Source: Candidatus Hermodarchaeota archaeon (GTDB taxonomy: Archaea; Asgardarchaeota; Lokiarchaeia; Sigyniarchaeales; SOKP01). Taken from it: a stretch of DNA of 33,287 nt. The notes below the pieces were generated by a model that worked only from the letters and a program-made list of their open reading frames with translations, did not search any database and had not been told where the DNA came from. Position numbers and translations under genes: made by a program. Positions within the stretch are counted from its first letter, which is position 1. Every line of letters begins with the position of its first letter. Below, piece after piece: positions 6,699 through 33,287 of this stretch. The stretch is from NCBI GenBank assembly GCA_048885535.1, contig JBHLLO010000005.1:47752-81038 (forward strand), in the 5' to 3' direction.

Positions 6699-6809
6699 AG
6701 AATTACTTAGATTAGATATATTTAATATGTAAAATATCTTTTTTATCATAATTTTAGGGAATATTAAGAATGCATTAATTTCTCATTAATTGAAAAATAA
6801 TGAGATGAA

Positions 6810-8903: not shown

Positions 8904-8952
8904 CCTATATTTGATATACTCAAATAATAAGAGAAGATGGATGCAAAAAAAT

Positions 8953-9804: not shown

Positions 9805-9815
9805 ATTTAAAAAAG

Positions 9816-10661: not shown

Positions 10662-10669
10662 CCTTTTTT

Positions 10670-11628: not shown

Positions 11629-12681
11629 TCACACTATTACTATAAATCTACCACAGTTGCTACAGTTTCCATTAATATCTAAGTTCACTTTTCGAATTTC
11701 AAAGCCTTTTCTTTCAATTATTATTTTAGAACAATTTGGGCAGAATGTATTTTCATATTTTGAGAAAGGTAAATTTCCTAGATATACAAAATCTAAGCCA
11801 ACTTTTTTAGCTATTTCATATGCTTCTTCAAGAGTTCTTAGTGATGTTGGTTCAAACAAATCATATTCATTTGATTTATAGTGGGGAAAAAAGCGAGTTA
11901 AGTGAAAGGGAGTGTCTTCTCCAAGCTCTTTAATAATCCTTTCAGAGATACTTTCAATGATTTTTTTATCTGTATTGAAGTTCTCTATTAAAAGAGTAGT
12001 CAATTCAACATGGACTCCGGAATCCTTTGCATTTTTTGCATTCCTCCAAACATATTGAATATCTATACCGCAATATTGCTTAACCATTTCAGAATCTCCT
12101 TTTATATCAATGTTGACTGCATCCAACCCGTTATTGATTAAATCATTTAAAACATCTTCAGTCATATAGCCATTGGTTACATATGTATTGTATAAACCTT
12201 CTCTCTTGGCTAATCCAAAGACTTCTAATGAATACTCAAAAAGTAAAGTAGGTTCATTGAAAGAAATTGAAGTTCCTTGGCAATTATGTTGTTTTGCCAG
12301 TTCAATTAAACTTTTTGGAGATATAAATTCGTTTGAATTCTTCACTAATTTAGAAATATTTTCTTTTGGATGGGAAATATGATAATTCTGACACCAAAAA
12401 CAATTGAAATTACAACCATATGTTCCAACAGTAATAGCAGTCGACCCTGGATAAAAATGATACAGAGGTTTCTTTTCAATTGGATTAAAAGATAGTGCAG
12501 GGATTAAACCATAAACAATGGTATAAATCTCTCCACCAAGGTTACTACGTGTTTGACAAAAACCTGAATTTCCTAGCTTAATTTTACATTTACGTTCGCA
12601 TGTTAAGCATTGAGATATTTTATCACTAATTTTTTTCTGAAATTTTGTTTTCTTCTGAAATTTTTGACTTACTATATCCAT
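11629..12681 (-). CDS. amrS: AmmeMemoRadiSam-system radical SAM enzyme (PFL-activase-like)
   Basis: N-terminal CxxCxxxC..C, PIEKKPLYHFYPG, radical SAM motif GCNFNCFWCQN, FNEP, FHLTRFFP, VYLGN, and C-terminal CxxC..CxxC. Confidence 0.88.
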   Translation of the reverse strand: MDIVSQKFQKKTKFQKKISDKISQCLTCERKCKIKLGNSGFCQTRSNLGGEIYTIVYGLIPALSFNPIEKKPLYHFYPGSTAITVGTYGCNFNCFWCQNYHISHPKENISKLVKNSNEFISPKSLIELAKQHNCQGTSISFNEPTLLFEYSLEVFGLAKREGLYNTYVTNGYMTEDVLNDLINNGLDAVNIDIKGDSEMVKQYCGIDIQYVWRNAKNAKDSGVHVELTTLLIENFNTDKKIIESISERIIKELGEDTPFHLTRFFPHYKSNEYDLFEPTSLRTLEEAYEIAKKVGLDFVYLGNLPFSKYENTFCPNCSKIIIERKGFEIRKVNLDINGNCSNCGRFIVIV

Positions 12682-16210: not shown

Positions 16211-16624
16211 ATGACAATAAATCAGATTTCTGTTTATCTTCCTAATAGACCTGGTCAGCTTGCGGAATTTTTTGAAGTGTTGATGAATAATAAGATTTTT
16301 ATTAGGTCATTAACTGTAGCAGAAACAGAGGATTATGGACTCCTTTTACTCTTAGTCGATCAATTTGAAGAATGTGCTAAACTTTTAGAAGAATTAGATA
16401 TTTTGTTTTCCATAACAGAGGTCGTAGCAGTTAGACTTTCAGATAATATCTCTGCTTTATACAAAATTGCTAAGTTGTTAGGGGCAAATCATATTAATAT
16501 CGAGTATCTTTATACAAGTATAATTGATGATAAACCATTACTAATTTTCAGATTAAATAATAACGAAAATGGACTTGAAATCCTTAAACAAAATGGCTAT
16601 TCTGTTGTTGAACGTTTAAAATAA
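16211..16624 (+). CDS. Tandem ACT-domain protein
   Basis: QISVYLPNRPGQL, SLTVAETEDYG, and second repeat NINIEYLY; 137 aa. Confidence 0.88.
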   Translation: MTINQISVYLPNRPGQLAEFFEVLMNNKIFIRSLTVAETEDYGLLLLLVDQFEECAKLLEELDILFSITEVVAVRLSDNISALYKIAKLLGANHINIEYLYTSIIDDKPLLIFRLNNNENGLEILKQNGYSVVERLK

Positions 16625-16686: not shown

Positions 16687-19209
16687 TTAAAAAAGATCGT
16701 CGTCAAGATCTTCATTACCTTCAGGAAATCTTCCAAATTCTTGCATGAATTGTTGTAGCAATTCGCTTTCTCTTTTAGTATACATTGGATCTTCATCATA
16801 ATTAAAGAAACAAGCTTTTTTATTGGTTTCTAATTGTTCTTCAAGTGCTAAACGTAAATTAAGTGTACCTTGAATTAATATTATTTCTTGACTCTCATTT
16901 AAAATTTGAATTACACCTTCAATTTCGGGTACAGTTTGAATATTATCAATAGTTAATTCCACCCACTTTTGAGGTGGAAGTGCGATAGGAGAGATGCAAA
17001 AACGTAGATCACATCTTAAACATCTACTTGCTTCCTCTAATGCTAAAGATTCATCAAATCCTAATTCAATTTCATTGAAATTATTTTGCCGTTGTTCAAG
17101 TGATAAAAGTGGCATTTTTACTCGTGCTTTATCGTAAAAGCTATCATCACGGCCAAAATTGGAATTTGGAACGCCCTTTTCAATGAGGACATCTTCAATA
17201 TTACCAATACCTCCCAGATATTTATCAATTGAAGAAGCAGCTCTTCGTCCCATTTCAATTGCATCAACTACAGAACTTGGACTATTTATAACTTCACCAC
17301 CTGCAAAGATACCTGGAATGTTTGTCTCTAATGATTCAATTTTTACTTCGATTAATCCTGATTTGGAGATGTTAATTTTACTTCTACTACCTAATAATGA
17401 TAAATCAGGAATTTGTCCTATGGCCAATATTACCATATCAGTATTAACAGATTTTGTATTATTTTCATCAAAAATTGGATTAAACAAATTATTATCGTCA
17501 TACACAGAATCGCAATGGATTAATTCAATTTCAGATATCTTACCATCCTTATCTATAATTCTTTTTGGTCCCCAAGAACAATCAATTGTTATACCCTCAT
17601 CTATTGCTTTTTGAATTTCCCAATCATGAGCGGGCATTTCTTCTTTGCATTCTAGACAAGTCAATTGAACATTTTTAGCTCCTAACCGCTTAACAGTCAA
17701 AGCTACATCTACAGCTACATTACCTCCCCCAATAACAGTAACATTATCTGGTATTCTTATTTCCTCGCCCTTATTAACTTTTTTCAGGAAATCAAGACCC
17801 CATAGAATATTTTGATAAGTTAAACCTTGAAGATTAAGCTTTTTGGTATTTTGAGCACCGATAGATAAGTAAGTTGCATCAAAGTTCATTTCTTTCAAAT
17901 CTTCAAAAGATATGTGCTCTCCAATCGCTTTATCTGTTTGGACATCAATTCCGATACTTAAAATATGGTTTAAATCATTTTCAAGAACTTCCCGTGGTAA
18001 CCTATATTCAGGAATTCCTTGGCTTAACATACCACCTAAATTAGAATAAGCTTCAAATAGAGTCACTGAATGGCCTAACCTTCTTAAGTAATATGCTGCT
18101 GTTAATCCAGATGGACCTGCACCTATAATGGCTACTTTTTTCCCTGTCGAAGGTTTGATTTTTATTTTTGATTTCCACAATTCACTATCATACTCCATTA
18201 TAAAACGTTTTAATCCACAGATGGCTATTGGGTCATTAATCTGATTCCGACGACATTTAATTTCGCATTCATGAAAGCATACCCTTCCAAGAACTGAAGG
18301 AAACGGAGTTTTTTCACGGATGACTGCTACTGCTTCAGCATACTTTTTCTCTAAGATTAAACGAATATAAAGTGGTACATCAATCTTTAATGGACAGGTA
18401 TATTTACAAGGAACAAGTAACTGTTCACGTTCAGCCCAAAGAATATCTTTATCTATAAGTGCTCCTGTAGGACAAACCTGTACACATGCTCCACAGAATT
18501 TACAACCCGAATCCTTAAGTGAAGGAGCAAGACTTCCGACTACTGTCTCCCCATTTAAATAAACAAAACCTAAGGCTTCAATCCCACGAACATCCCGACA
18601 TACTCTAACACATCTAGTACAACCAATACATAATTCATAGTTTCTGGTGAAAAGTGGTTCATTTTCTATAATTACTCGTCCTTGGGGTTTATAACGTGGA
18701 ATATCTTCTCGAATTCCAATATATTCTGCTACTTTTTGTAATTCACATCTTCCTAATATAGGGCAACATCGTTCTTCTACTGGTACATTAGGTGAACATG
18801 GTTCACGGCTACAACCTTCGCGTTGTGCACACATTAAGCATGCATGGGGGTGTTTTGAAAGAATATTTACTAACTTTTCACGACGTATAGCTTGAATCTC
18901 TGGAGTATCTGTCAAAATAATCATTCCTTCTTCAACAATTTTACTGCATGATGTAATATTCCCTTCAATTCCCTCTATTTTTACCAAACAAAGTTGACAT
19001 CCTTGATGTTCTTGAAAATCAGTGTTAATAAAATTAGAACTTCCTTGGAATATTTCATCATTTGGGGTTAATCCTACTAGAGGCGGCAAATCAGGGTGAG
19101 CACAGAGACTTGGAATATATATACCTGAACTTAATGATGCTTCTAATACATTACTTCCCTTTTTAACATCAAAATTAATTCCATTTATTGTTATTGAGAC
19201 TATTTCCAT
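16687..19209 (-). CDS. bzdV: BzdV-like multidomain Fe-S flavoprotein (putative NAD(P)H:ferredoxin oxidoreductase; NuoG/hydrogenase-like N-terminus, GltD-like core, extra C-terminal domain)
   Basis: 2Fe-2S Cys (SLC..GCQLC..TSC), HxxxCxxC, two CxxCxxCxxxC motifs, PCKYTCP/GRVCFHECEIKC, FAD motif GAGPSG, NAD(P) motif GGGNVA, and RCLRCD. Last gene of the bzd operon. ATG at 19209 is preferred over GTG at 19218. Confidence 0.8.
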   Translation of the reverse strand: MEIVSITINGINFDVKKGSNVLEASLSSGIYIPSLCAHPDLPPLVGLTPNDEIFQGSSNFINTDFQEHQGCQLCLVKIEGIEGNITSCSKIVEEGMIILTDTPEIQAIRREKLVNILSKHPHACLMCAQREGCSREPCSPNVPVEERCCPILGRCELQKVAEYIGIREDIPRYKPQGRVIIENEPLFTRNYELCIGCTRCVRVCRDVRGIEALGFVYLNGETVVGSLAPSLKDSGCKFCGACVQVCPTGALIDKDILWAEREQLLVPCKYTCPLKIDVPLYIRLILEKKYAEAVAVIREKTPFPSVLGRVCFHECEIKCRRNQINDPIAICGLKRFIMEYDSELWKSKIKIKPSTGKKVAIIGAGPSGLTAAYYLRRLGHSVTLFEAYSNLGGMLSQGIPEYRLPREVLENDLNHILSIGIDVQTDKAIGEHISFEDLKEMNFDATYLSIGAQNTKKLNLQGLTYQNILWGLDFLKKVNKGEEIRIPDNVTVIGGGNVAVDVALTVKRLGAKNVQLTCLECKEEMPAHDWEIQKAIDEGITIDCSWGPKRIIDKDGKISEIELIHCDSVYDDNNLFNPIFDENNTKSVNTDMVILAIGQIPDLSLLGSRSKINISKSGLIEVKIESLETNIPGIFAGGEVINSPSSVVDAIEMGRRAASSIDKYLGGIGNIEDVLIEKGVPNSNFGRDDSFYDKARVKMPLLSLEQRQNNFNEIELGFDESLALEEASRCLRCDLRFCISPIALPPQKWVELTIDNIQTVPEIEGVIQILNESQEIILIQGTLNLRLALEEQLETNKKACFFNYDEDPMYTKRESELLQQFMQEFGRFPEGNEDLDDDLF

Positions 19210-19347
19210 ATTGAACACTCTCTAAATAAAATTAATCATCAAATTAATTACTTTTTAATTGAAATAATGAGTGTTAGAGCATTTGTTTCAAGTTTAATGA
19301 AGGTTCATTCTTAAAATTTTTATTAAACCGACTGTGATTTTTCCATC

Positions 19348-19638
19348 CTACCAAGAATGAGTTATTGCGCCAGGTTCACAAGATTTCACACAAGGTAATT
19401 CTTTTGTTTTGCCAACAGGCTTACAAGGAGCACAAGAGTATTTAATTTTTTTACGGTGTTCTTCTGAAACAATTGCAATAACCTCATCACCTAATGGGTC
19501 TAACTCATTTTCACCCATTTCAAGAACATTTTCTGGGCAGGCATCAACACATTTCCCACATGAGTTACACAAATCTGTATCAATAGTAATAAAATATTCT
19601 CCTGAACCATCCTTATAACCATAATTTGCTTTTGTCAT
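19348..19638 (-). CDS. bzdM: 2[4Fe-4S] ferredoxin, BzdM type
   Basis: ANYGYKDGSGEYFITIDT start, CNSCGKCVDACP, CAPC-x10-CVKSC, and terminal HSW. Directly follows bzdQ. Confidence 0.85.
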   Translation of the reverse strand: MTKANYGYKDGSGEYFITIDTDLCNSCGKCVDACPENVLEMGENELDPLGDEVIAIVSEEHRKKIKYSCAPCKPVGKTKELPCVKSCEPGAITHSW

Positions 19639-19666
19639 TTCAGCACGTCCACATTATTAAAAAAAA

Positions 19667-20548
19667 TTAACTTTTTTTTCGTTCTTTTTCAATTAGGGCC
19701 TTCGCAAATAAAGCAGCACCAATAGCTCCAGCAAGTTGAGGATCAATACTTGGCTCTGGAGCTTTAAGCTTTAGTTCATCTTCAATTCTCTTAACAACAC
19801 CGATATTTTTTGCAATACCTCCCGTTATAGCAAATTTCTCTTCTATTCCAAGTCGCAATAATAGGGTTACTACACGATGAGCCATAGCTGAGCAATATGC
19901 GGCTAAAACTTTTTCTTTTGGCCATCCCTTTCTAAGTAACCCAACAGCTTCTGATTTTGCAAATACTACACATGTACTACTTACCGGTTCAGGTTCTTCA
20001 TCAACTTCTAAAGACATTTTTCCCACATCATTAATATGAACTTGAAGTAGATCAGCAAATACCTCCATTCCTCTTCCAGTTCCTGCTGCACACTTATCAT
20101 TCATGAGAAAAGCAGTAACTTTCCCGCGATTGTCACACCGAATCGCTTTACAATCTTGCCCGCCCATATCTAAAACTGTTCTTATATCAGGACCATAAAT
20201 AAAGTTTGCACCTCTTGCATGACAGGCAATTTCTGTAATTGCTCTTTTTGCGAAAGGAACATTGACGCGACCATATCCCGTTCCAACCACATACTGAATC
20301 TTATCCAAAGTTAATCCAGTTCCCTCCAACGCCCAATCCATAGCACTTTTAGCACTATCTGGACTATTTGATCCAGTTCGCATACTTGAATAGCAGTAGA
20401 TCTCTCCATCTACCATTATAACGGCTTGAGTGCTGACTGATCCAACATCCACCCCTGCTGAGATGATTTCACCTTTTTTCCAATCTAAATCAGGATTTGT
20501 AAATCTAGATTCAGTCCATCTCCAATATTCTTTTTCTGTCTTTGACAT
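19667..20548 (-). CDS. bzdQ: Benzoyl-CoA reductase, Bzd type, subunit Q (ASKHA ATPase/activator)
   Basis: N-terminal EYWRW.E extension, GVDVGSVS, TGYGR, EIACH, DMGGQD, MNDKCAAGTGR, STCVVFA, GGIAKN. ATG at 20548 has GGAGGT just upstream. Confidence 0.9.
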   Translation of the reverse strand: MSKTEKEYWRWTESRFTNPDLDWKKGEIISAGVDVGSVSTQAVIMVDGEIYCYSSMRTGSNSPDSAKSAMDWALEGTGLTLDKIQYVVGTGYGRVNVPFAKRAITEIACHARGANFIYGPDIRTVLDMGGQDCKAIRCDNRGKVTAFLMNDKCAAGTGRGMEVFADLLQVHINDVGKMSLEVDEEPEPVSSTCVVFAKSEAVGLLRKGWPKEKVLAAYCSAMAHRVVTLLLRLGIEEKFAITGGIAKNIGVVKRIEDELKLKAPEPSIDPQLAGAIGAALFAKALIEKERKKS

Positions 20549-20552
20549 TATT

Positions 20553-21335
20553 TTAACCTCCAATCTTATCTTGAGCTATAAGCGCAGCTCCTAATGCGCT
20601 TACATATTCTGGGGCTATATCCTCTTTTGGTACTAAAAGCTTAAAGCCCAAATTTTTATTCATTGCATCAACAAAACCAATATTGTTGGCGACACCACCT
20701 ATTAATACTACTTCTTTTTCAATACCTATTTGTCTTACCATGCTAGTATTTCTATCTGCAATTGCATCATGAACAGCTCGAATTATATCTTCTTTAGAAG
20801 TTTTTTGATGGATCAATGATACAACTTCAGATTCGGCAAAAATCGTACATTGCGCATTCATGGGTATTTGCTTTGTTGATTTCAAAGAAAGCTCTCCCAT
20901 AGTTTCGATATCAACTTCTAATGCTCTTGACATGGCTTCTATAAACGCACCAGCTCCAGCAGCACACTTTTCATTTATTCCAAAATCTTTAACCTTTCCA
21001 TATTCATCGAGCTTTACAACTAATCCTTCTTCAGCTCCAATATCGATAATAGTGCGAGCTGAAGGAAATAAGAAAAATGCTCCACGACCATCGCAAGTTA
21101 CAGTGGTTACATTATCATTTGCGAATGAAATTGCTTCCATTCCAGCTCCAGTTGCAGTAATGTATTTAATATCTTCTCTTGTAATTCCTGCCTTTTCAAT
21201 AGCTTGATCGAGTGCTTGCCTGGCAGACTCTTCTTGATCAAATCCGCTTAATACTGAAGCTGTGGATAAAATCTTATCCTCAAAAATACAAACTTTTGTA
21301 TTTTTTGAACCTGCATCTAGTCCGACCGTTATCAT
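20553..21335 (-). CDS. bzdP: Benzoyl-CoA reductase, Bzd type, subunit P (ASKHA ATPase/activator)
   Basis: GLDAGS, TGAG, DIGAEE, INEKCAAGAG, AQCTIFAESE, GGVANN; lies between bzdO and bzdQ. Confidence 0.87.
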   Translation of the reverse strand: MITVGLDAGSKNTKVCIFEDKILSTASVLSGFDQEESARQALDQAIEKAGITREDIKYITATGAGMEAISFANDNVTTVTCDGRGAFFLFPSARTIIDIGAEEGLVVKLDEYGKVKDFGINEKCAAGAGAFIEAMSRALEVDIETMGELSLKSTKQIPMNAQCTIFAESEVVSLIHQKTSKEDIIRAVHDAIADRNTSMVRQIGIEKEVVLIGGVANNIGFVDAMNKNLGFKLLVPKEDIAPEYVSALGAALIAQDKIGG

Positions 21336-21367
21336 ACTAAACCACTTCTTATTATAATTCTAAATTA

Positions 21368-22678
21368 TTAATTTATTTTCTCAATACCAATTGATTCCAT
21401 AAAAGTGTCTACTCGTTTCATTGTTCGCTCAAGATCGAATTCTCGTTCATCTCCCATGTTCCCTTCGAACGGCATTGTTGGAATCCCAGCTTTTTGAATA
21501 GCTAAACGATTTTCTGCTATCCCAAGGCTTAAACCTTCACACCCTCTATTAAAATGTAAAAACACACCATCTAATTTCCATTCCTTAGCAATTCTTATCA
21601 TCATATCCGATTTAAGTTTTGGATGATAAAAGTGTTGCCATTCAGGTTTACTTAAATTCCACTCAGCTAGAGCCCGTAATGCATCATCCCTGTTAGTTAA
21701 TTCAATATCTGGAATGGATCTTGGTCCCCACGTTCCATCTTCTTTTACTTCCCATAATCCAATAAGACCAAAAGTATAAAGACTTCCAACAGAAACACAG
21801 CCATATTGTTCTAAATAACGAAAAATTCTTAAAAATGCCCATGGTGGTTGGGTATCTGTCATTATTCGACATTTTTCGTTCCCTACAGCAGCAATACCTC
21901 TTGCTACACGATCCTCTACCTCTGGATATAGTTCTTTTTCATAAAAATCTGCTGTCCATTGAGCAGATTTCCTTAAAGTGCCAAGAACATATAAGGAATA
22001 CATCGATTTTTCATCTAATGGAGCTGGGATTGCTTTATTAAGCTCACATATAGCAGCCCAGTAATGACATGAGCGAAATTCATTCTTAACAGCCTTAATT
22101 AGTAATTCATCATCATAATCTCTTCCAGTTATTTTTTCTAGCCATTCAATACCATCATGCATTTGTCCTACAACATAGTTGATTTTATGTTCATTTAGTT
22201 CTTCATATGGTCCTACTGATACGTCAATACTAAACATAGGAATGCCTCCCTCAAGGTCACTTGCTACTTGATACCACTTAGCATGTGAACAGCAAATGTG
22301 ATCCTGCCAAATAAAATCTGGTTTAGGGAATTTTTCCGAAAATTGTGGCCAGGCATATTTGTTTAGAAGTATAGATCCCCAGTAATTCCGCATATAAGAG
22401 CAAAGATCTCTTGCAAAACCCTTTGCTTCAGTTGCTTCATGACATTCTAACGCAAGTCTATCATTAAATGCTATTGTTGCACCATAGGGTTCCCCTGTTA
22501 AGGAGTATACATCATCCCCTAAACCAGCAGGAATAGCATCAAAAGACCATGCTCCACCTACCCAACGGAGCCCTCCTTTATCATGGGCTTCAGCAAAATC
22601 TTTATAATAATTTTCTCTAAGAACTTTAGCTTTATTCCAACATTTTAATGATTCAGTTGGATATTTTGTATTTTTCAT
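21368..22678 (-). CDS. bzdO: Benzoyl-CoA reductase, Bzd type, subunit O
   Basis: [66 protein letters not shown]-like AAGGAGG upstream. Confidence 0.9.
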
Positions 22679-22696
22679 TCATTTTCCTCCTTCTTT

Positions 22697-23821
22697 TTAA
22701 AATAAATCCTCTTCTCTTATAATTTCAAGAAACGCTTCAACACGTGTTTTAAATTGACCAATTGGCACTGTGACATCAAACTCGAGGAATAATGTTTGAA
22801 TGCCAAGATTATTCTCAAGTGTTTCTTTAATTATAACTGTATCAAGTTCATGTGGGTCACAAAATTTCATCTGCATAATAATGACTCCTTGTACATCATA
22901 CTCTTTTGCTAATTGGAGAATACGGTCAAGCCTTGTACGGTGAGGCCAGTCTTTACTTGGACATGGTGTACGATTAACATACCTTTCAGCTATTGAAACT
23001 ATTGGATCTCCATTTGTATTTACCTCTGTATTAAAATATCGAGTACCCGTGCAGTGTTCATCAATAACAAATCTAGCTCCTAATCCTTCCACCATCGCAA
23101 CAAATTCAGTATCATCATCTTCAGAACCTAAAATCATCAATCGTTCACCTGGTTCAAATAAAGTCCTTGAAGGAAGCTTCTTTAGAAGTTCCTCTAAAGC
23201 TTTATTATGTTCCCGTTTATCAACCATTTGTGAAGATACTACCATCAACATAGCTTCAAGACCAGTTAAGGGTGGATTAGGACTTTTTCTTAATTCATAT
23301 ACTTGTTGTAATAGTTGTCTGTTTTTATTCATTATCTCAATCCCTCGTTTAATGTCATCATCTGTAATTTCTTTCCCAGTCCATTTTTCAATTGCGTTCT
23401 TGAACGATATTAATTCTTCTGTTAAATAAGGAATAGCATGAGTGCTTTGCACATGCATTGGGTGTGGTAAATAGTATGAAAAATCTACAGGTATATGTAA
23501 TTCCCAACTTGTGAAAGCCTGCCTAATATGGAGACAACTTTGTGCTATCGTAATACCATCAAGGTAATCATATCTCCCTTTTAATCCCTGAGCTAAACAA
23601 TCTCGGCAGAATGGGCAAAACATCGCAAATATATGCGGTTCAGAGACATCCTGTGGCTCATGACTACCTAAAATTCTTACTGGTAGAATATCTGCTGCAT
23701 AAAGAATTTCTTCGGGAACATAAGTGCAGAAATATCCTAATATTTTTCCACCAGTACGTTCTTTCCATTTTTTAGCATAGTCATGACGGTTTTCATACCA
23801 CTCTTTAAATTGATCAAACAC
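22697..23821 (-). CDS. bzdN: Benzoyl-CoA reductase, Bzd type, subunit N
   Basis: FKEWYENRHDYA, GYFCTYVPEE, MFCPFCRDCLAQG, QSCLH, GSEDDD, DEHCTGTRYF, KFCDPHE. GTG at 23821 has GGAGG 8 nt upstream. The ORF track starts at ATG 23836. Confidence 0.9.
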   Translation of the reverse strand: MFDQFKEWYENRHDYAKKWKERTGGKILGYFCTYVPEEILYAADILPVRILGSHEPQDVSEPHIFAMFCPFCRDCLAQGLKGRYDYLDGITIAQSCLHIRQAFTSWELHIPVDFSYYLPHPMHVQSTHAIPYLTEELISFKNAIEKWTGKEITDDDIKRGIEIMNKNRQLLQQVYELRKSPNPPLTGLEAMLMVVSSQMVDKREHNKALEELLKKLPSRTLFEPGERLMILGSEDDDTEFVAMVEGLGARFVIDEHCTGTRYFNTEVNTNGDPIVSIAERYVNRTPCPSKDWPHRTRLDRILQLAKEYDVQGVIIMQMKFCDPHELDTVIIKETLENNLGIQTLFLEFDVTVPIGQFKTRVEAFLEIIREEDLF

Positions 23822-23941
23822 GTTTAATGCCTCCATTTGGATAAACTTTATATTTGTTATAATTTACCATTTTAAATCAAATATCTCCTTGATACATTCT
23901 ATTTTTGAAAGTAAAATTTAAATTAAAAATTTTATTAACCT

Positions 23942-24988
23942 CTATTTTTGACATAATATTATTATTCTAATTCCTTCTCCTTGACGCATAACATCAAAAG
24001 CTTCATTAATTTCTGAAAGTGAAAATTTATGAGAAATTAATGGTTTAAGTTGAAGTGAGCCAATCTTAACTAAATTGATAATATGTGGATAATCGACAGG
24101 ACGGCAACCAAGACTCCCCATTAACTCCATTTCTCGAAACATTACACGACCAATATCGAACCCATCCCAACGTTTAGGTGAATATCCCACTGCAACTAGA
24201 CGTCCCCCTGTTTTCAAACTATTAAAAGCTTGTTTCATTGTCGTTGGATGTCCAATGGCTTCAAAAGCTATATCTGCGCCTCCTCCTGTTATTTTCCTAA
24301 TAGCGCTAACAATTTCCCTCTCATCTTTATCTTTTGCTAAAATAGTTTCTACAGCTCCAATCTGCTTAGCAATTTCTAATTTTTTTGGGACAATATCAAC
24401 AGCAATAGGTAAACCTCCTGCTACTTTTATGTTTTGAACTACATTCAAACCAATGCCACCACAACCTATAACTACAGCCCAATCACCAGGTCTTACTTGA
24501 CCTCGATTTTTTACAGCATGATAAGGCGTTGATACAGCATCCGAAATAATACAGCTTTCCTCTAATGACATTTCGATTGGAAGGTGAACTACATCTTTTA
24601 TAGGAACCTTAATTTGCTCAGCAAATCCCCCATCAATATGATTTCCAAGCATTATTTGATTAAGACAAATATTTTCTCTACCAATTCTACAATTAACACA
24701 GTACCCACAAGAAAGTACAGCAGGAATAATTACATGATCTCCTTCTTTGAAATTCTTTACGTCTTCACTTACTTCTTTAATTACTCCAGATATCTCATGG
24801 CCCAAAATAAGAGGAGGCCTTTTGACAGTTGGTACTCCATGTTCTAAATAACCAAAATCAGTATGACAAACTCCACATGCCGTGATCTCAATAATTGCTT
24901 GTCCTGACTCGCTTGAAATAGTTGGATCAGGATAATTGTTATCTAATTTTAAAGGTTCTTTAACTTTTTCAAAAACTGCGGCTTTCAT
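23942..24988 (-). CDS. had: 6-hydroxycyclohex-1-ene-1-carbonyl-CoA dehydrogenase (Zn-dependent MDR family; Had/BzdX)
   Basis: CGVCHTD.GY, LGHEISG, PAVLSCGYCVNC..GRENIC, DAVSTPY, GCGGIG; operon context. Confidence 0.82.
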   Translation of the reverse strand: MKAAVFEKVKEPLKLDNNYPDPTISSESGQAIIEITACGVCHTDFGYLEHGVPTVKRPPLILGHEISGVIKEVSEDVKNFKEGDHVIIPAVLSCGYCVNCRIGRENICLNQIMLGNHIDGGFAEQIKVPIKDVVHLPIEMSLEESCIISDAVSTPYHAVKNRGQVRPGDWAVVIGCGGIGLNVVQNIKVAGGLPIAVDIVPKKLEIAKQIGAVETILAKDKDEREIVSAIRKITGGGADIAFEAIGHPTTMKQAFNSLKTGGRLVAVGYSPKRWDGFDIGRVMFREMELMGSLGCRPVDYPHIINLVKIGSLQLKPLISHKFSLSEINEAFDVMRQGEGIRIIILCQK

Positions 24989-25056
24989 CCTAACTTCCTA
25001 CATTTTGTTGTGTTGTTATTATAATTTAAATATAATTATTATTAAATTTAAGAAAA

Positions 25057-25824
25057 TTAACGATTCTGCCAATTGGGTGCTCTTTTCTCTAGGAATGCTT
25101 GTAAACCTTCATTTGCATCATGTGTCGACATTAACTCCTTTAGGTAAAATTGTTCAATTTCGTCTAATTTTTTTTCAAAGTCGAAATTTAGGGCTTTATT
25201 AAACGCGTTTTTTGTATGTTGTAATACGATGGAACTTAAAGTATCAAAAGATCCGATGTAGTTTTTGAATTCTTGCTCATACGATTCATGAGGGAATATT
25301 TGATTAGAAATCCCTAATCTATGAGCCTCATTAGCATCAATAATTTCACCTAAAATTATAAGCTCAAAAGCCTTTTTATTTCTAATAATATGAGGAAAAG
25401 CTAAAATAGCAATCGGGGGAAATACACCTACTTTTACTTCGGGTTGCCCAAATTTCGCTTTATCTGAAGTAAGTACGATATCACAAAATAATGCAATTTC
25501 ACATCCTCCTCCAAGAGCGGCTCCTTTAATACTTGCGATTGTTGGACATTTTATCTTGTTAAGCTTTCTAAAAATTCCATGAAACTCCTTAATCATTTTT
25601 GGTGCTTTATCACCAATATGATCACTTATATCAACTCCAGCTGAAAAGGCTTTTCCATTATGATCAAAGATAAGAATTTTTAAAGATTGGTCTCCTATAA
25701 AACCTTCAAGAGCCTTGTTGATTTGTTCCATCATAGGAATGGTTAGAATATTGAGCGGACCATTGTTAAAAATAATCTTCCCAATATGATTTGTCTTTTC
25801 AACCACAATTAAATCATTTATCAT
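25057..25824 (-). CDS. dch: Cyclohexa-1,5-diene-1-carbonyl-CoA hydratase (crotonase family; Dch/BzdW)
   Basis: AFSAGVDISDH, LGGGCE, GQPEVKVGVFPP, ELMSTHDANEGL. ATG at 25824 is preceded by GGGAG; operon context. Confidence 0.8.
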   Translation of the reverse strand: MINDLIVVEKTNHIGKIIFNNGPLNILTIPMMEQINKALEGFIGDQSLKILIFDHNGKAFSAGVDISDHIGDKAPKMIKEFHGIFRKLNKIKCPTIASIKGAALGGGCEIALFCDIVLTSDKAKFGQPEVKVGVFPPIAILAFPHIIRNKKAFELIILGEIIDANEAHRLGISNQIFPHESYEQEFKNYIGSFDTLSSIVLQHTKNAFNKALNFDFEKKLDEIEQFYLKELMSTHDANEGLQAFLEKRAPNWQNR

Positions 25825-25894
25825 TTTCTTTTCTCCCAATCTGGCATTAAATCTTATTTATACAGCTTTTATAATGTTTTTAAAAAAATAAATT

Positions 25895-26854
25895 TTATTT
25901 TAATTTAGCTCCACATTTACCACAAAACCCAAAGTCGGAAGGTAAATTCTTAGTTTGACAAGATGGACAGGTAACGGAAGGGGGACCCCATAAAAACTCA
26001 GGGTGAGGACTTTCTCTTACCCCTCTATAATTTGGAGGACGTTTTTCCACAAAAGCCGACATTCCTTCAAGTGGTTCCCATGAGGCATAATGAATGGATA
26101 ACCAGTCTTTTGCATGACCAATTGTTTGATGCCAAACTAGATCTTTCCAGAAATTAACCTGTTGTTTTGTATATCTCATACATTCTGGAAATTTATCAAT
26201 GAGTTTTTGGCAATATTTATCAATTTCATCATCTATTTCGTTATAAGGTACAACTGAATTTACTAATCCCCATTCTAAAGCTTTTTGTGCTGAAATAGGT
26301 TCACAGAGATATAAGATTTCCCTTGCCCTCCGATCACCAACTATAATAGGTAGCCATTGAGTAGCACCTCCACATGCCACAGATCCTACTCTAGTCCCTA
26401 CTTGCCGAATAGTAGCATGTTCTGCGCATACAGCTAAATCACATGCCATTTGCCACTCATTACCTCCTCCTGCTACAATACCATTTATTCTTGCAATAGT
26501 AGGTTTACCAATATTTCGAAAAACGTCATGAGCTTCTTGGAAGATACACATCCACTTCCAATATTCAGCAGGTTGAACAGTAAATCTTTCTTGATATTCT
26601 TTTACATCTCCACCAGTACAAAATGCTTTACTACCCGCACCAGTTAAAATTATAACCGCAATTTTATTATCCCATGCAGCATCATGAAACGCCTCAATCA
26701 TTTCCATTAATGTGAGGGTTGAATAGGCATTATATACTTCTGGACGATTAATAGTTACAGTTGCTTTCCATGCTTCTTTTTCATAAATAATTTCTTTAAA
26801 ATCAAATTCATTTGGGTCCTTGGGGGTAAAATTAGGTTCTTTTGTATAAGTCAT
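25895..26854 (-). CDS. oah: Putative 6-oxocyclohex-1-ene-1-carbonyl-CoA hydrolase (Oah/BzdY-like ring-opening crotonase) with C-terminal zinc ribbon
   Basis: YNAY, AFCTGGDVKEY, GGGNEWQMACDL, GGAT, LCEP, FPEC. First gene of the operon. ATG at 26854 follows GAAGTGA; GTG at 26863 is the alternative start. Confidence 0.7.
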   Translation of the reverse strand: MTYTKEPNFTPKDPNEFDFKEIIYEKEAWKATVTINRPEVYNAYSTLTLMEMIEAFHDAAWDNKIAVIILTGAGSKAFCTGGDVKEYQERFTVQPAEYWKWMCIFQEAHDVFRNIGKPTIARINGIVAGGGNEWQMACDLAVCAEHATIRQVGTRVGSVACGGATQWLPIIVGDRRAREILYLCEPISAQKALEWGLVNSVVPYNEIDDEIDKYCQKLIDKFPECMRYTKQQVNFWKDLVWHQTIGHAKDWLSIHYASWEPLEGMSAFVEKRPPNYRGVRESPHPEFLWGPPSVTCPSCQTKNLPSDFGFCGKCGAKLK

Positions 26855-27083
26855 TATATTCACTTCTATACTAATTATTTTGATTTCTTTTACTTTTATT
26901 ACTACTCTTAGATAATTCTACAAATTCATTTAAAATTTGTTAATAGAATTTGATAAGTGGGAATAAAATACCATTAAGAAAGCAATTCAGATGGAAATCA
27001 AAAAGAGTAATATTTAAACTAAACATTATAATTATATCTAATGTAGATTCGAGAAATAAAATAAAGAACAGAACTGAATGCAT

Positions 27084-27365
27084 ATGGTTTCAAATAAAAA
27101 AAAAGATAAGGAAGAGAAAGATTCAAATTCTCCACTCAGAGGAAAAGACTGGGAAAAGGGTTTTACAATTGAAGAACATAGAGTAAATGAATACGTAGAA
27201 TTATATGAATCAATTGGTTATGAAGTACGTGTTGAACCCGCTACTCCCGATGAACAAGAAGATTGTCAAACATGTTTTAAAGCTGATTTTAACAATTTAC
27301 GAACAATTTATATTAAACGCACGAAAAATAAAGAACATGAAATAGATTCAGATGAACTATTGTAA
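27084..27365 (+). CDS. Small hypothetical CxxC protein divergent from the bzd operon
   Basis: Protein-like sequence RVNEYVELYESIGYEVRVEP..CQTCF..RTIY. Start is at 27078 or 27084. Confidence 0.7.
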   Translation: MVSNKKKDKEEKDSNSPLRGKDWEKGFTIEEHRVNEYVELYESIGYEVRVEPATPDEQEDCQTCFKADFNNLRTIYIKRTKNKEHEIDSDELL

Positions 27366-28756: not shown

Positions 28757-29197
28757 ATGTCAAAATTAGAACCTGTCAAATTTGATGACTTTAAAGAGGG
28801 TGATTCTGCTTCATTTTCAAAAACAATCACTGAGGCAGATGTAACTCTATTTGCAGGGATATCAGGCGATTTTAATCCTCTACATATTAATGAGGAGTTT
28901 GCAAAAACTCAAATGTTTGGAAAGCGAGTTGTTCATGGTGCTTTTAGCTCAGCCTTAATCTCAGCTGTCCTTGGTGCTCATCTCTTCGGTCCAGGAGCCC
29001 TTTATGCATCTCAAAAGGTTATCTTTAAAAAGCCAGTCTTTATTGGTGATACTGTAACAGCTGTAGCAACAATTACTAAAAAATATACTAAAGAAGGAAA
29101 AAGTGGAGTTTTACAATTTCTTGACGTAGAAACAAAGGTTTACAATCAGAAAAATGAAGTAGTGACTGATGGGGAAGCCCAAGTTATTGTAATGTAA
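28757..29197 (+). CDS. MaoC/PhaJ-family (R)-specific enoyl-CoA hydratase
   Basis: Hydratase-2 motif FAGISGDFNPLH, RVVHG, GPG, and FKKPVFIGDT. Confidence 0.9.
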   Translation: MSKLEPVKFDDFKEGDSASFSKTITEADVTLFAGISGDFNPLHINEEFAKTQMFGKRVVHGAFSSALISAVLGAHLFGPGALYASQKVIFKKPVFIGDTVTAVATITKKYTKEGKSGVLQFLDVETKVYNQKNEVVTDGEAQVIVM

Positions 29198-29506: not shown

Positions 29507-31087
29507 ATGTCATGGCTTAATATTGGTGAAATAATTAAAGTTAATGCAAATAAATATCCAGATAAACTAGCATTAAAGGATTCAAAACGTGAATTGACCT
29601 TTAAGGAACTTGACGAAAGAACTAATAAACTCGCTAATGGTTTTCTTAAATTGGGAGTAAAAAAGGGCGACAAAATAGCAATTTTATCAAATAATTCAAT
29701 TGAATTTATGGAAACTTATAGTGCAGCAGCTAAAGGAGGATTTATAATAGTACCTTTAAATTTTCGCCTGCATCCTGAGGAACTATCATTTATAATTACC
29801 AATTCTGATTCAATATATTTGATTGTGGATTCACGATTTAAAGAAGCAACTGAACAAATTTGGACAAGAGCAAAAGAATTAGGATTGGATAAGGTTAAGC
29901 GGGTGTTAATCTCGAAAAATCCGGCAGATGATTGGTTACTTTATGAAAAAATTATAGAAATCGGAGCTGATTCTTATCCTTCTATTAAAGTTAATCCAGA
30001 AGATACATGGGTTATTCTATATACTTCAGGAACTACTGGAACACCCAAAGGTGTGGTACGATCCCATCGTTCCTACATTGCATTCTTCTTAATTAATGAA
30101 GCAGAATTTTCTTTTACACCCCAAGATTATGGTATGATTTTAATGCCATTATCTCATGTAAATTCCACTTTCTATTCATTTGTCTTTACTTATTTGGGGG
30201 CACCTGTTTATGTTCATATTGAGTACAAATTTGATCCTGAGGAAGTTTTAAAGATTATTGACAATGAAAAGATAACATTTACCTCGATGATCCCTACTCA
30301 TTATAATTTAATATTAAGTCTCCCTGAAAATATAAAGAAAAAATACAATCTTGACTCTATTCGAGCTCTATTAACGTCTTCAGCTCCTGCAACTAGGCAA
30401 ATGAAATTAGAAGTAATGAACCTCTTTAACAAAGCGGAACTTTTTGAAGCTTATGGCTCCACTGAAGCTGGACTCGTCACCATCCTAAGACCCGAGGATC
30501 AAATGAATAAATTGGGATCAATTGGAAAAGAGTGTATTGGAACTGACAGTATTCGAATACTAGACGAAGATGGGAATCCCGTGTCTTTAGGAGAAATTGG
30601 TGAATTATATTCTCGAGGTCCTCAGATGTTTGATAAGTACTATAAACTACCAGAAAAGACAGAAGACTCGTTTAAAGGAGAATTTTTCAGTGCTGGTGAC
30701 ATGGCTAAGAAAGATGAAGATAGTTTTTATTATCTTGTTGATAGAAAAGCAAATATGATTATTACTGGAGGAGAACATGTTTATCCTTCTGAGGTTGAAA
30801 AAATTATCATTTCTCATCCACTGGTTATTGAGTGTGCCGTAATCGGTTTACAAGATTATAAATGGGGGGAAAAGGTAACAGCTATCTGTATTCTAAATCA
30901 GGAAGTTCCGGTCCCAGAGGATGTTAATAAAGAAATACGCACATTTTGCGAAAATAAATTAGCAAGATTTAAGATTCCAAAAGAGGTTTTTATTATTAAT
31001 TCCGATGAGATGCCTAGAACAGGTTCAGGAAAGGTAATTCATCGAATATTACGAGAACGATATAATAAACAAATTATTAATAGTTAG
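29507..31087 (+). CDS. AMP-forming acyl/aryl-CoA ligase (ANL superfamily)
   Basis: YTSGTTGTPKG, EAYGSTE, AGD, DRKANMIITGGEHVYP.EVE, and PRTGSGK. GAGGT upstream. Confidence 0.92.
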   Translation: MSWLNIGEIIKVNANKYPDKLALKDSKRELTFKELDERTNKLANGFLKLGVKKGDKIAILSNNSIEFMETYSAAAKGGFIIVPLNFRLHPEELSFIITNSDSIYLIVDSRFKEATEQIWTRAKELGLDKVKRVLISKNPADDWLLYEKIIEIGADSYPSIKVNPEDTWVILYTSGTTGTPKGVVRSHRSYIAFFLINEAEFSFTPQDYGMILMPLSHVNSTFYSFVFTYLGAPVYVHIEYKFDPEEVLKIIDNEKITFTSMIPTHYNLILSLPENIKKKYNLDSIRALLTSSAPATRQMKLEVMNLFNKAELFEAYGSTEAGLVTILRPEDQMNKLGSIGKECIGTDSIRILDEDGNPVSLGEIGELYSRGPQMFDKYYKLPEKTEDSFKGEFFSAGDMAKKDEDSFYYLVDRKANMIITGGEHVYPSEVEKIIISHPLVIECAVIGLQDYKWGEKVTAICILNQEVPVPEDVNKEIRTFCENKLARFKIPKEVFIINSDEMPRTGSGKVIHRILRERYNKQIINS

Positions 31088-31133: not shown

Positions 31134-32342
31134 ATGACTTTTAAAAATGCTTATATACCTTATGGTCAATATTGGAGCACTCCTTTTTCTAGATGGCAAG
31201 GGAGTTTCCAAAATCTCCATGCAATAAAATTCGCGGCAGAAATAACAACTAATTTCTTAAATCAAAATAAAATTTCGCCTAATGAATTTGATGAACTGAT
31301 ATTAGGTATTACAATTCCCCAACTTAATTGTTTTTACGGGGGACCTTGGTTATCAAGTTTAATTGGAGCAGAACATATAACGGCACCTATGATAAGTCAA
31401 GCTTGCGCCACTGGAACTAATTCTGTTTCAATCGCAGCGCAAGGCATAGAAGCAGGATTAAATAAAAATATTTTGATTGTATGTACAGATAGATGTTCAA
31501 ATGGACCTCATTTAGCCTATCCTAATCCAGAAGCACCTGGAAATACTCTCGACTCAGAAAATTGGGTTTGGGACAATTTTGGTTATGATCCTTATGCTAA
31601 AAACTCAATGATTCAAACGGGTGAAAATGTAGCTAAAGAAGTAGGCATAACAAAAGATGAACAAGATGAGGTGACTCTTTTGAGGTATAAACAGTATCAA
31701 GATTCTTTAAAGGATGATAGAGCTTTCCAGAAGAAGTACATGATGGGTCCCATTGAGGTGAAAGATCGCTCAGGTCGTAAAGTTTTAGTTACTGTTGAAG
31801 GAGATGAGGGGATATATCCTACTACCATGGAAGGACTCTCTAAGCTTAGACCTGTTCTCCCCGATGGAACAATCACTTATGGAACTCAAACTCATCCTGC
31901 TGATGGTAATTGTGGTATGATTATCACCACACAAGAAAAAGCAGCAGGATTAAGAAAGAGAGAAGATGTTGAGGTTAAAGTAGTATCTTATGGTGAGTAT
32001 AAGACAAAGAAAGGTTATATGGCTATGGCTATTGTTCCCGCTGCGAAATTAGCTTTAGAACGAGCAGGAATTTCTATTGAAGACATATCTGTGATAAAAA
32101 CGCACAATCCTTTTGCTGTAAACGACATTTATTTCTCAAGAGAAATGAATGTCGATTGGAAGAGTATGAATAACTATGGAAGTTCACTAATATTCGGTCA
32201 TCCGCAAGCACCTACAATGTTGAGAATAATTATAGAAATGATTGAAGAATTAGTAGAGAAAGGGGGAGGTTTTGGTTTAGCAGATGGTTGCGCTGCCGGA
32301 GATACTGCTGCGGCTCTAGTTTTAAATGTAAAGATTGAATAA
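31134..32342 (+). CDS. Thiolase-family protein with non-canonical motifs
   Basis: STPF..WQGS, SQACAT, DEG, HPADG, KTHNPFAVND, NNYGSSLIFGHPQ, and GCAAGD. Confidence 0.88.
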   Translation: MTFKNAYIPYGQYWSTPFSRWQGSFQNLHAIKFAAEITTNFLNQNKISPNEFDELILGITIPQLNCFYGGPWLSSLIGAEHITAPMISQACATGTNSVSIAAQGIEAGLNKNILIVCTDRCSNGPHLAYPNPEAPGNTLDSENWVWDNFGYDPYAKNSMIQTGENVAKEVGITKDEQDEVTLLRYKQYQDSLKDDRAFQKKYMMGPIEVKDRSGRKVLVTVEGDEGIYPTTMEGLSKLRPVLPDGTITYGTQTHPADGNCGMIITTQEKAAGLRKREDVEVKVVSYGEYKTKKGYMAMAIVPAAKLALERAGISIEDISVIKTHNPFAVNDIYFSREMNVDWKSMNNYGSSLIFGHPQAPTMLRIIIEMIEELVEKGGGFGLADGCAAGDTAAALVLNVKIE

Positions 32343-32397: not shown

Positions 32398-33287
32398 ATG
32401 CTTAGAAAGAAAATACAAGCTGTTAGAGAATTAAATCAATTAATGTCTGATTATTATCATAAGCTGGATTATGCTTCTAAGGATGATAATAAGAAAGTAG
32501 CATGGTGTTCTAGTGTTGGACCAGCAGAAATACTCAGGAGCCTAGACTTTGAAGTTTATTTCCCAGAGAATCATAGTGCTATGTTAGGAGCCTCTAGAAT
32601 AGCCACAGATCTAATTCCGTATGCAAATGCAATTGGTTATTCACCAGAAATTTGTTCATACCTAACTGCTGATATAGGTGCTTATTTAAAACAAGTAACT
32701 GCATTATCTAAAGCTTATCCAGATATTGAAAGCGTTCCAAAACCAGATGTATTAGTCTTTAATACAAATCAATGTCGAGAGGTTCAAGATTGGTTTAATT
32801 GGTTTGCACATGAATTTAAAGTGCCAATAATGGGTATATCTACTCCGAGAAGTGTCGGTGAAGTTACAGATGCACACATTAAGTTTATAGCGCAACAAAT
32901 GGAAGAACTTATTCAACAATTAGAACCTATTTCAGCAACGAAATTTAAACTTAATAAACTTAAAGAAGTTGTGTCTCTTTCTCGTAGATGTTCTGAGCTT
33001 TGGAAAGAGATTTTAGAAACAACTGCTCATATACCTTCACCATTTACATTCTTTGATGGTACAATACACATGGCTCCTGCTGTAGTTATGAGAGGAACGA
33101 GTAAAGCTGTAGAGTATTATAAAACGTTATTAGCTGAATTACAACAGAGAATAAAGAATCATATTGGCGCTGTAGATAATGAACAATTTAGGTTATATTG
33201 GGAAGGAATGCCAATTTGGGGAAGGCTAAGACACTATTCTGAATTATTCGCGAATCTTAAATCATGTGTAGTTGCCTCGACTTATTG
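32398..33287 (+). CDS. 2-hydroxyacyl-CoA dehydratase (HgdA/FldB/HadB-like, HGD-D family) subunit, 3'-truncated by the window edge; absent from the ORF track
   Basis: Manual translation from ATG 32398: MLRKKIQAVRELNQLMSDYY..KVAWCSSVGPAEILRSLDFEVYFPENHSA..GYSPEICSYLTADIG..PKPDVLVFNTNQC..PSPFTFFD..RLYWEGMPIW. The frame is open to the end of the window. Confidence 0.88.
   Translation, partial: MLRKKIQAVRELNQLMSDYYHKLDYASKDDNKKVAWCSSVGPAEILRSLDFEVYFPENHSAMLGASRIATDLIPYANAIGYSPEICSYLTADIGAYLKQVTALSKAYPDIESVPKPDVLVFNTNQCREVQDWFNWFAHEFKVPIMGISTPRSVGEVTDAHIKFIAQQMEELIQQLEPISATKFKLNKLKEVVSLSRRCSELWKEILETTAHIPSPFTFFDGTIHMAPAVVMRGTSKAVEYYKTLLAELQQRIKNHIGAVDNEQFRLYWEGMPIWGRLRHYSELFANLKSCVVASTY

Follow-up and report, generated by a model that had tools for sequence, protein, structure and literature searches.

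Can a Loki-type Asgard archaeon dearomatise benzoyl-coenzyme A (benzoyl-CoA)? This question is raised by a 33,287-nt stretch of DNA (the window; G000:C5:47752-81038, contig JBHLLO010000005.1 of assembly GCA_048885535.1), which comes from a genome of 3.09 Mb in 112 contigs and whose right end is the end of its contig. The window contains nine consecutive genes that resemble the bzd genes for anaerobic benzoyl-CoA degradation, and a first-pass annotation had described them as a complete Bzd-type operon in a probably archaeal host. The evidence gathered here indicates that they probably form a working cluster for the central pathway of anaerobic benzoyl-CoA degradation, hosted by a Promethearchaeota (Loki-type Asgard) archaeon.

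The nine open reading frames (ORFs) are co-directional on the minus strand, from 26863 down to 16687, as the first-pass annotation had reported. Its end coordinate, 26854, corresponds to an ATG that lies three codons inside the listed GTG ORF and is most likely the start of the first gene. Also as reported, the beta-oxidation-like genes come first, upstream of bzdN. From first to last gene, the spacers measure 55, 68, 105, 18, 32, -11, 28 and 129 nt; most are short, as had been claimed, yet the 105-nt and 129-nt gaps could leave room for internal promoters. Similarly, the proposed Shine-Dalgarno-like motifs are clear for bzdO (AAGGAGG) and doubtful for the remaining genes, where the upstream regions are at best weakly purine-rich. 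A scan for bacterial-type promoters and terminators, which is ill-suited to archaea, returned counts at chance level (52 against 51.6, and 6 against 5.4).

Genes were named using NCBIfam equivalog models with curated cut-offs, Pfam, and the ranking of matches in the PDB. By these measures, two genes are identified at sequence level as encoding the catalytic dimer of a Bzd-type class I benzoyl-CoA reductase (BCR). BzdN (22697..23836, minus strand) is the predicted double-cubane [8Fe-9S] subunit and passes TIGR03190 at 482.5 bits (cut-off 453.8), while BzdO (21368..22678, minus strand), predicted to hold the aqua-[4Fe-4S] cluster and the benzoyl-CoA site, passes TIGR03191 at 687.1 bits (cut-off 448.6). 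In the PDB, BzdN ranks first with the BzdN chain 8s02_B (465.5 bits), followed by HadC (174) and MbdN (105), and BzdO with the BzdO chain 8s02_A (654.4 bits), followed by HadB (104) and MbdO (50). Models of the dehydratase subunits HadB and HadC are failed by O and N, respectively, at 132.2 and 196.9 bits against cut-offs of 750 and 700, as are the Thauera-type models BcrB (48.4 against 486.55) and BcrC (134.6 against 421.15). The grouping of N and O with dehydratases, which the first-pass annotation had named as the outcome that would refute the function, was thus not observed.

The active site points in the same direction. Residues are numbered after the Aromatoleum BzdNO structure 8S02 (Fuchs et al. 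2025, PMC11971306), and BzdO was aligned as 81 sequences, comprising that of the window and 80 relatives. The cluster ligands Cys95, Cys128 and Cys380, the acid/base pair Glu65 and His131, and the pocket residues Trp46, Tyr97, Gln274, Tyr298, Leu302 and Leu383 are all kept in the window and invariant in 81/81 sequences. Overall, 14 of the 16 active-site positions checked are invariant throughout and identical to Aromatoleum, and Gln124 is kept in the window and in 77/81 sequences. Position 131, described as Ala in HadB (PMC11971306), is His in the window's BzdO. For BzdN, the alignment was read by hand: seven cysteines are common with 8s02_B, and Arg53, Arg267, Arg290, His330 and Ser239 are kept, while Gln324 is replaced by Met. 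Basic residues around the [8Fe-9S] double cubane are among those named for BzdN in PMC11971306.

Downstream of the catalytic pair, the cluster appears to encode the remaining parts of an ATP-driven reductase. The gene in the BzdP position (20553..21335, minus strand; 260 aa, BcrAD_BadFG 173.5 bits) encodes an activase-type ATPase that passes TIGR00241 (224.3 bits, cut-off 125.4) and reaches only 143 bits with the BzdQ model; no BzdP-specific model occurs among its NCBIfam matches, and its PDB matches are the HadI activator (195 bits) and MbdQ (189 bits). It is overlapped by 11 nt by bzdQ (19667..20563, minus strand), which encodes the predicted second ATPase of the electron-activating dimer and passes TIGR03192 at 429.7 bits (cut-off 380.2), with MbdQ as PDB match (212.6 bits). 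Judged by these profiles, BzdP and BzdQ are two different activase-type ATPases. Next comes a 96-aa ferredoxin in the BzdM position (19348..19638, minus strand; Fer4 family matches), which contains two [4Fe-4S] motifs, CxxCxxCxxxCP and CxxC-x10-CxxxC-E-P.

The last gene (16687..19218, minus strand), whose GTG start is uncertain, encodes an 843-aa BzdV-like iron-sulfur flavoprotein with Pfam domains Fer2_4, Fer4_Nqo3, Fer4_20 and Pyr_redox_2. In this fusion protein, a 2Fe-2S/NuoG-like N-terminal module precedes a GltD/NfnB-like NAD(P)H flavoprotein module; the best PDB matches include NfnA (369.5 bits), NfnI alpha (241 bits) and NfnB-like modules of formate dehydrogenases. In the Aromatoleum literature, BzdV is described as a putative NADPH:ferredoxin oxidoreductase (PMC5658619). 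By analogy, the 843-aa protein is a candidate ferredoxin-regenerating oxidoreductase, and it takes the BzdV name from its position and its NfnB/GltD-like module. Hidden Markov model (HMM) cut-offs and PDB ranking therefore bear out the first-pass description of the locus: a class I reductase of the Bzd type, accompanied by a ferredoxin and a BzdV-like oxidoreductase.

The three genes upstream of bzdN are less easily named. First in the cluster is a 319-aa MenB/BadI/Oah-like crotonase (25895..26854, minus strand), a candidate ring-opening hydrolase, followed by a 260-aa Dch-like crotonase (25057..25839, minus strand; ECH_1 162.8 bits), a candidate dienoyl-CoA hydratase, and a Had-like zinc-dependent alcohol dehydrogenase (Zn-ADH; 23942..24988, minus strand). 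The Dch model TIGR03189 is only the third-best match of the second protein (156.3 bits, cut-off 292.5), behind generic short-chain enoyl-CoA hydratases. For the Zn-ADH, the Had model TIGR03201 is the top match (226.4 bits, cut-off 338.65). The Oah-like and Had-like genes of the cluster are also the best matches to those models in the genome. The names given by the first-pass annotation therefore hold for BzdN, BzdO and BzdQ, which pass equivalog cut-offs, while oah, dch and had indicate the right families only.

The 319-aa protein is, on its sequence features, not a canonical Oah. It matches the Oah model only over the N-terminal half (positions 37-212 of 360; 178 bits, cut-off 464.45), and it matches BadI and MenB at full length: TIGR03210 gives 209.7 bits over positions 1-254 of 256 (cut-off 467.6), the MenB model 200 bits (cut-off 380), and the best PDB match is MenB (2IEX, 188.6 bits). 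BadI (2-ketocyclohexanecarboxyl-CoA hydrolase) and MenB (DHNA-CoA synthase) both act on a ring C-C bond adjacent to a CoA thioester, either forming or cleaving it. The 319-aa protein is set apart by a Cys4 zinc ribbon at its C-terminus (CPSC...CGKCG), which is kept in 21/21 homologues, one of them from an Acidobacteriota locus. As a control, the hydrolases beside Bzd genes were scored in five loci from Planctomycetota, Aminicenantes and Thermoplasmatales, and 5/5 were canonical Oah (555-577 bits). The Loki-type cluster therefore bears a different relative in the Oah position.

Homologues of this zinc-ribbon hydrolase make up a large, highly conserved family and are found at 62-79% identity, under generic names only, in metagenome-assembled genomes (MAGs) labelled Thor-, Hod-, Kari- and Heimdall-, as well as in Tectomicrobia, Armatimonadota, Chloroflexi, Acidobacteriia, Methanomassiliicoccales and Heliophilum fasciatum. 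In a survey of 400 species-level genomes of the Asgard phylum, the hydrolase was found in 55, of which 40 also encode BzdO above cut-off (cross-tabulated by hand). In the host's own genus, the 10 genomes with the hydrolase are precisely those with BzdO. As related genomes are not independent samples and the genes lie together on the DNA, this co-occurrence shows co-inheritance rather than proof of function.

How widely is the cluster itself distributed? In the same survey, BzdO above cut-off has a patchy distribution, with 57 of 400 genomes overall and 10 of the 42 in the own genus, G000 included. Gene order was compared in 80 BzdO loci from a species-representative collection, where most loci without the full core are truncated by the end of a contig. 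All nine genes keep their order in 17/80 loci, all from the Loki-type clade, and the Dch-like crotonase holds its position in these 17. The ferredoxin gene directly follows bzdQ in 63/80 loci, giving the order N-O-P-Q-ferredoxin, and in 51/80 it is followed by the BzdV-like gene. This six-gene core is common to Asgard archaea, Thermoplasmatota, Aminicenantes, Planctomycetota, Gemmatimonadota, Acidobacteriota and others, with BzdO 68-75% identical to that of the window; identity to other Asgard copies is 82-95%. Given that the nine-gene order recurs in 17/80 loci and the core in 51/80, the arrangement is not due to chance.

A FastTree phylogeny of BzdO, rooted on three long-branched paralogues from the own genome, places 42 Asgard-type sequences in one clade (support 100), with the window nested among Promethearchaeota. 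Support is weak for how this clade, the bacterial groups and the Thermoplasmatota groups are related to one another, so the tree indicates neither a branching order among them nor a donor. Apparent in-frame stops in BzdO of one Asgard family turned out to be the normal termination codon, which the HMM match had run past; the check covered loci L107-L110, from three flagged genomes (G104, G107, G100) and the unflagged G098, and found no recoding. A tblastn search of plasmids returned, as best matches, only genes of the '2-hydroxyacyl-CoA dehydratase family' with 22-25% identity, and the locus on the Azoarcus KH32C plasmid has no BCR annotation.

A working scheme can be proposed from these genes. 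By analogy with Aromatoleum sp. CIB (PMC11971306, PMC5658619), reduced ferredoxin would pass electrons to BzdPQ, whose potential would be lowered by ATP hydrolysis, and BzdNO would then convert benzoyl-CoA (or a closely similar compound) by reduction into cyclohexa-1,5-diene-1-carbonyl-CoA. The BzdV-like protein would connect the ferredoxin pool with NAD(P)H. For the later steps, gene context suggests that the dienoyl-CoA might be hydrated by the upstream crotonase, the 6-hydroxy intermediate oxidised by the Zn-ADH, and the ring opened by the zinc-ribbon MenB/BadI-like crotonase instead of a canonical Oah. The context likewise suggests that the divergently oriented genes for a MaoC-like protein, a CoA ligase and a thiolase could provide substrate activation and downstream beta-oxidation.

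Several observations weigh against a functional benzoyl-CoA pathway in this host. The Dch-, Had- and Oah-like genes all fall below their equivalog cut-offs. The zinc-ribbon hydrolase occurs without BzdO in 15 of its 55 Asgard carriers, and Heliophilum fasciatum and Dormibacterota are among the organisms with copies of 62-70% identity, so that a role restricted to this pathway does not follow. The best benzoate-CoA ligase candidate in the genome, which is 91.6% complete, reaches 271.1 bits with TIGR02262 (cut-off 375.25). In BzdO, Ser44 is replaced by Gly in 81/81 sequences, and since this holds throughout the environmental clade, substrate range may differ. Finally, we infer the operon structure from spacing only. 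The word 'complete' in the first-pass annotation was thus an overstatement: with no benzoate-CoA ligase passing its threshold, and three upstream genes below theirs, completeness is unproven.

Could the enzyme be a genuine reductase acting on a different aryl-CoA, such as a meta-substituted benzoyl-CoA from lignin or humic matter? In the Aromatoleum structure, Ser44, which belongs to the second shell and is no cluster ligand, is reported to form a hydrogen bond to Glu65 and to lie at a distance of 3.6-4.0 A from C3 of the ring (PMC11971306). Its replacement by Gly in the window and all 80 relatives might leave extra room at the meta position, and the CoA ligase linked to the cluster is not a recognised benzoate-CoA ligase. 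On the other hand, every other pocket residue (Trp46, Tyr97, Leu302, Leu383, Gln274 and Tyr298) is identical to that of the benzoyl-CoA-bound structure, and the 3-methylbenzoyl-CoA reductase MbdON is only a distant relative (50 and 105 bits). Taken together, a different substrate seems rather unlikely.

About equally improbable is that the three upstream genes serve another acyl-CoA route, such as cyclohexanecarboxylate or generic beta-oxidation, with the dienoyl-CoA being processed elsewhere or differently. The sub-threshold scores of all three genes fit this idea, as do the generic enoyl-CoA hydratases that best match the Dch-like crotonase, the wide occurrence of the hydrolase family outside BzdO carriers, and the canonical Oah of the five control loci. 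Against this, the genome has no better Oah or Had candidate, the Had model remains the top match of the Zn-ADH, and the three genes lie directly upstream of bzdN in 17/80 loci. Furthermore, an Acidobacteriota locus (L081) has the same type of hydrolase (57% identity) beside its Bzd genes, and hydrolase and BzdO mark the same 10 genomes of the own genus. A cluster for the benzoyl-CoA pathway remains the preferred reading.

An archaeal host for that cluster is supported by several lines of evidence. EF-2 shares 90-96% identity with proteins from MAGs that mostly bear Promethearchaeota or Lokiarchaeota labels, and the nearest BzdO loci are from Promethearchaeota MAGs (91-95% identity). EF-2 and the syntenic loci thus support a Loki-type Asgard host (a Promethearchaeota MAG), in agreement with the Asgard/Lokiarchaeia-like guess of the first-pass annotation. 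Codon use, which it had described as AT-rich, is host-like, as GC content at third codon positions (GC3) of the nine genes is 0.18-0.24 and falls inside the genome's distribution (mean 0.216, standard deviation 0.026, 1279 long ORFs), with total GC (0.33-0.39) somewhat above the genome's 0.313. The data are compatible with its further statement that any horizontal transfer is old. No tRNAs occur in the window.

Alternatively, the contig could be mis-binned bacterial DNA and the archaeal host an artefact. MAG bins can be contaminated (1.88% here), bacterial BzdO copies are 68-75% identical to the window's, and a 7.9-kb contig labelled Halanaerobiales (L026) bears a 93%-identical BzdO. However, the GC3 of the nine genes lies in the normal range of the genome, and many Promethearchaeota MAGs show conserved synteny, at 70-97% identity, across the cluster and its non-BCR flanks (ACT protein, methyltransferase, MaoC, ligase and thiolase). 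Relatives' clusters also sit on closed chromosomes labelled Promethearchaeota (L049) and Heimdallarchaeota (L046), the 42 Asgard BzdO rows form their single, fully supported clade, and BzdO occurs in 57/400 genomes of the phylum. Mis-binning is accordingly unlikely, and an artefactual host very improbable. As a side observation, one 'Heimdallarchaeota' bin holds three different BzdO copies (L029, L034, L041) on short contigs with 89-93% identity; this bin and the L026 label probably reflect binning or labelling errors rather than transfers.

Lastly, the idea that N and O, together with an activator, form a 2-hydroxyacyl-CoA dehydratase serving amino-acid fermentation is highly improbable and effectively refuted by HMM scores and PDB ranking: although the superfamily is the same (Pfam HGD-D and BcrAD_BadFG) and Asgard archaea live by fermenting amino acids, N and O pass the Bzd models and fail the HadB/HadC models, two different ATPases with a dedicated ferredoxin make a reductase architecture, and BzdO has His131 where HadB has Ala.

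Besides the nine genes, one neighbour seems to be associated with Bzd-type reductases. The divergent orf95 (27078..27365, plus strand) encodes a 95-aa protein of no known family, with no Pfam match even at E<=10. Homologues are present in 33/80 loci, including those of Gemmatimonadota, Acidobacteriota and Thermoplasmata. In Loki-type loci, the gene is upstream of the cluster and divergent; in loci of the Heimdall/Hod type and of Gemmatimonadota, Acidobacteriota and Thermoplasmata, it is co-directional with bzdV and located downstream of it. It thus stays beside Bzd-type reductase genes in archaea and bacteria despite gene rearrangement. A family profile finds it in 64 of the 400 Asgard genomes, namely 51 of the 57 with BzdO and 13 of the 343 others (cross-tabulated by hand), and 7 of these 13 carry the zinc-ribbon hydrolase.

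The orf95 family is large, with at least 1000 cluster representatives at E<=0.001, of which 421 pass the stricter limit of E<=1e-10, measuring 64-139 aa among those listed. Ten of these were looked up and were unnamed or 'hypothetical', and the ESM Atlas clusters are named 'hypothetical protein' only. W25, R35, E38, Y43, C63 and C66 are invariant. An AlphaFold model of middling confidence (pLDDT 68.8) has a beta-alpha-beta-beta core, for which no fold match in the PDB was found at E<=0.001 (best E 0.37). We infer from context only that orf95 is an accessory or regulatory component; possible roles for its CxxC domain of about 70 residues include redox, assembly or regulation.

How does the cluster compare with known systems? 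The closest characterised relative is the bzd cluster of Aromatoleum (Azoarcus) sp. CIB, described as having the same N-O-P-Q order, followed by a ferredoxin (BzdM) and an NAD(P)H-type oxidoreductase (PMC11971306; PMC5658619, Zamarro et al. 2017). Similarity extends to the catalytic subunits, where BzdO and BzdN match 8S02 at 654 and 465 bits with cluster ligands and acid/base residues kept. In contrast, the beta-oxidation-like genes are upstream in the window and downstream in Aromatoleum, and they are divergent from BzdW/X/Y (Dch/Had/Oah), the ring hydrolase being of the zinc-ribbon MenB/BadI-like type. The window also differs in Ser44Gly of BzdO and Gln324Met of BzdN, and lacks a recognisable BzdR-type regulator or BzdA-type ligase. 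Thauera-type BcrCBAD/BadDEFG and MbdONQP (PDB 9G87/9GAI) share the superfamily, the ATP-coupled logic, and the two catalytic plus two ATPase subunits, but are distant only (BcrB 48, BcrC 135, MbdO 50 and MbdN 105 bits). Likewise, BadI and MenB resemble the full-length crotonase core of the 319-aa protein (209.7 bits for BadI, 188.6 bits for 2IEX), which remains far below their cut-offs of 467.6 and 380 and has its zinc ribbon in addition.

Class I reductases in Asgard archaea have been reported before. For Costa Rica margin sediments, a 2019 study described ATP-dependent BCR in Loki-, Thor- and Heimdallarchaeota (bioRxiv 10.1101/763623). A Hermodarchaeota contig from h02s_80 was later shown to carry a Bcr cluster with BzdV, ferredoxin, Dch and Had, with Bcr genes counted in 10 of 118 Asgard genomes and noted as relatives of Chloroflexi class I Bcr (Zhang et al. 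2021, PMC8163825). The novelty that the first-pass annotation saw in an Asgard host had therefore already been published in 2019 and 2021. Nor is a class I enzyme in a strict anaerobe as unusual as it had suggested, with precedents in Ferroglobus placidus and deep-sea Chloroflexi (PMC5736913). The published Asgard clusters come from hosts of this phylum-level group and likewise encode an ATP-dependent class I reductase; to what is already known, the window adds one species-level genome. Supporting a role in aromatic degradation, RNA/DNA stable isotope probing tied Loki-3 activity to lignin and humic acids (PMC8027215), although that article leaves benzoyl-CoA unmentioned (0 occurrences).

What is new is the recurrence of the six-gene core in 51/80 loci across archaea and bacteria, and the presence of orf95 with BzdO in 51/57 BzdO-positive Asgard genomes. 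Residual interest lies in the non-canonical ring hydrolase, in orf95 and its ties to Bzd reductases, and in Ser44Gly throughout the environmental clade. All three go unmentioned in the passages of PMC8163825 and 10.1101/763623 that were compared. A tentative and somewhat doubtful extension is that two pathway components have gone unrecognised, namely a zinc-ribbon crotonase family that would open the alicyclic ring in place of Oah/BamA, and orf95 as a dedicated Bzd accessory factor. If the zinc-ribbon crotonase does open the ring, surveys based on bamA/oah markers under-count anaerobic aromatic degraders in sediments. If orf95 is a true Bzd partner, it would supply a part so far missing from an enzyme whose ATP-coupled electron activation is not yet fully understood. 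The NOPQ-ferredoxin-V cassette, tightly kept across two domains with BzdO 68-75% identical between Asgard archaea and bacteria, also provides a clean case for studying the transfer of a whole redox module.

Further genes on the plus strand extend to the contig end. A 146-aa MaoC-like (R)-specific enoyl-CoA hydratase (28757..29197; MaoC_dehydratas 90.2 bits) is syntenic in Loki-type loci at 75-97% identity. It is followed by a 526-aa AMP-forming acyl-CoA ligase (29507..31087; AMP-binding 277 bits), a candidate aromatic-acid activator. The best NCBIfam match of this ligase, PRK06187, falls short at 432.7 bits (cut-off 476), and it reaches 188.5 bits with the benzoate-CoA ligase model TIGR02262 (cut-off 375.25). 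Homologues with 52% identity adjoin Bzd clusters in Acidobacteriota (L081) and Gemmatimonadota (L093). Next is a 402-aa thiolase (31134..32342; Thiolase_N and Thiolase_C), another syntenic neighbour, which scores 192.6 bits with TIGR01930 (cut-off 240.55).

The contig end cuts a second HGD-D family gene (32398..33285, plus strand; HGD-D 141.5 bits). It is HadB-like (HadB 177.9, BcrB 126.8, BzdO 63.7 bits) and is not part of the Bzd reductase. In Loki-type loci, a HadB-like gene (178-218 bits) is kept beside the thiolase, with a full copy at L104:5766-6998. In the relative G400, it encodes a single 410-aa subunit and is followed downstream by genes for MaoC, ThiS, a CCG/HdrD-like protein, a 592-aa aldehyde:ferredoxin oxidoreductase, a 4Fe-4S protein and an ApbA-like reductase, with a separate activase, ETF and an acyl-CoA dehydrogenase farther on. 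This neighbourhood may represent another ATP-activated acyl-CoA system.

On the other side of the cluster, a gene for a 137-aa protein with a pair of ACT domains (16211-16624, plus strand) converges on bzdV and is kept there in 11/80 loci (48-89% identity). It may be a small-molecule sensor, or a mere neighbour in close relatives. An AmmeMemoRadiSam-system radical SAM enzyme (11629-12681, minus strand; TIGR04337 260.9 bits, cut-off 220) has no visible link to the cluster. Four tandem alpha/beta-hydrolase paralogues of 279-286 aa lie at 8043-11509 on the minus strand; one was compared with NCBIfam and matched RutD, a PcaD-type enol-lactonase and the proline iminopeptidase family at about 100 bits, all below cut-offs, so that a tie to aromatic ester or lactone hydrolysis is only a guess. 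Finally, a 920-aa GH35 beta-galactosidase followed by a major facilitator superfamily (MFS) transporter (3936-8033, plus strand) places a sugar-use module beside the aromatic cluster.

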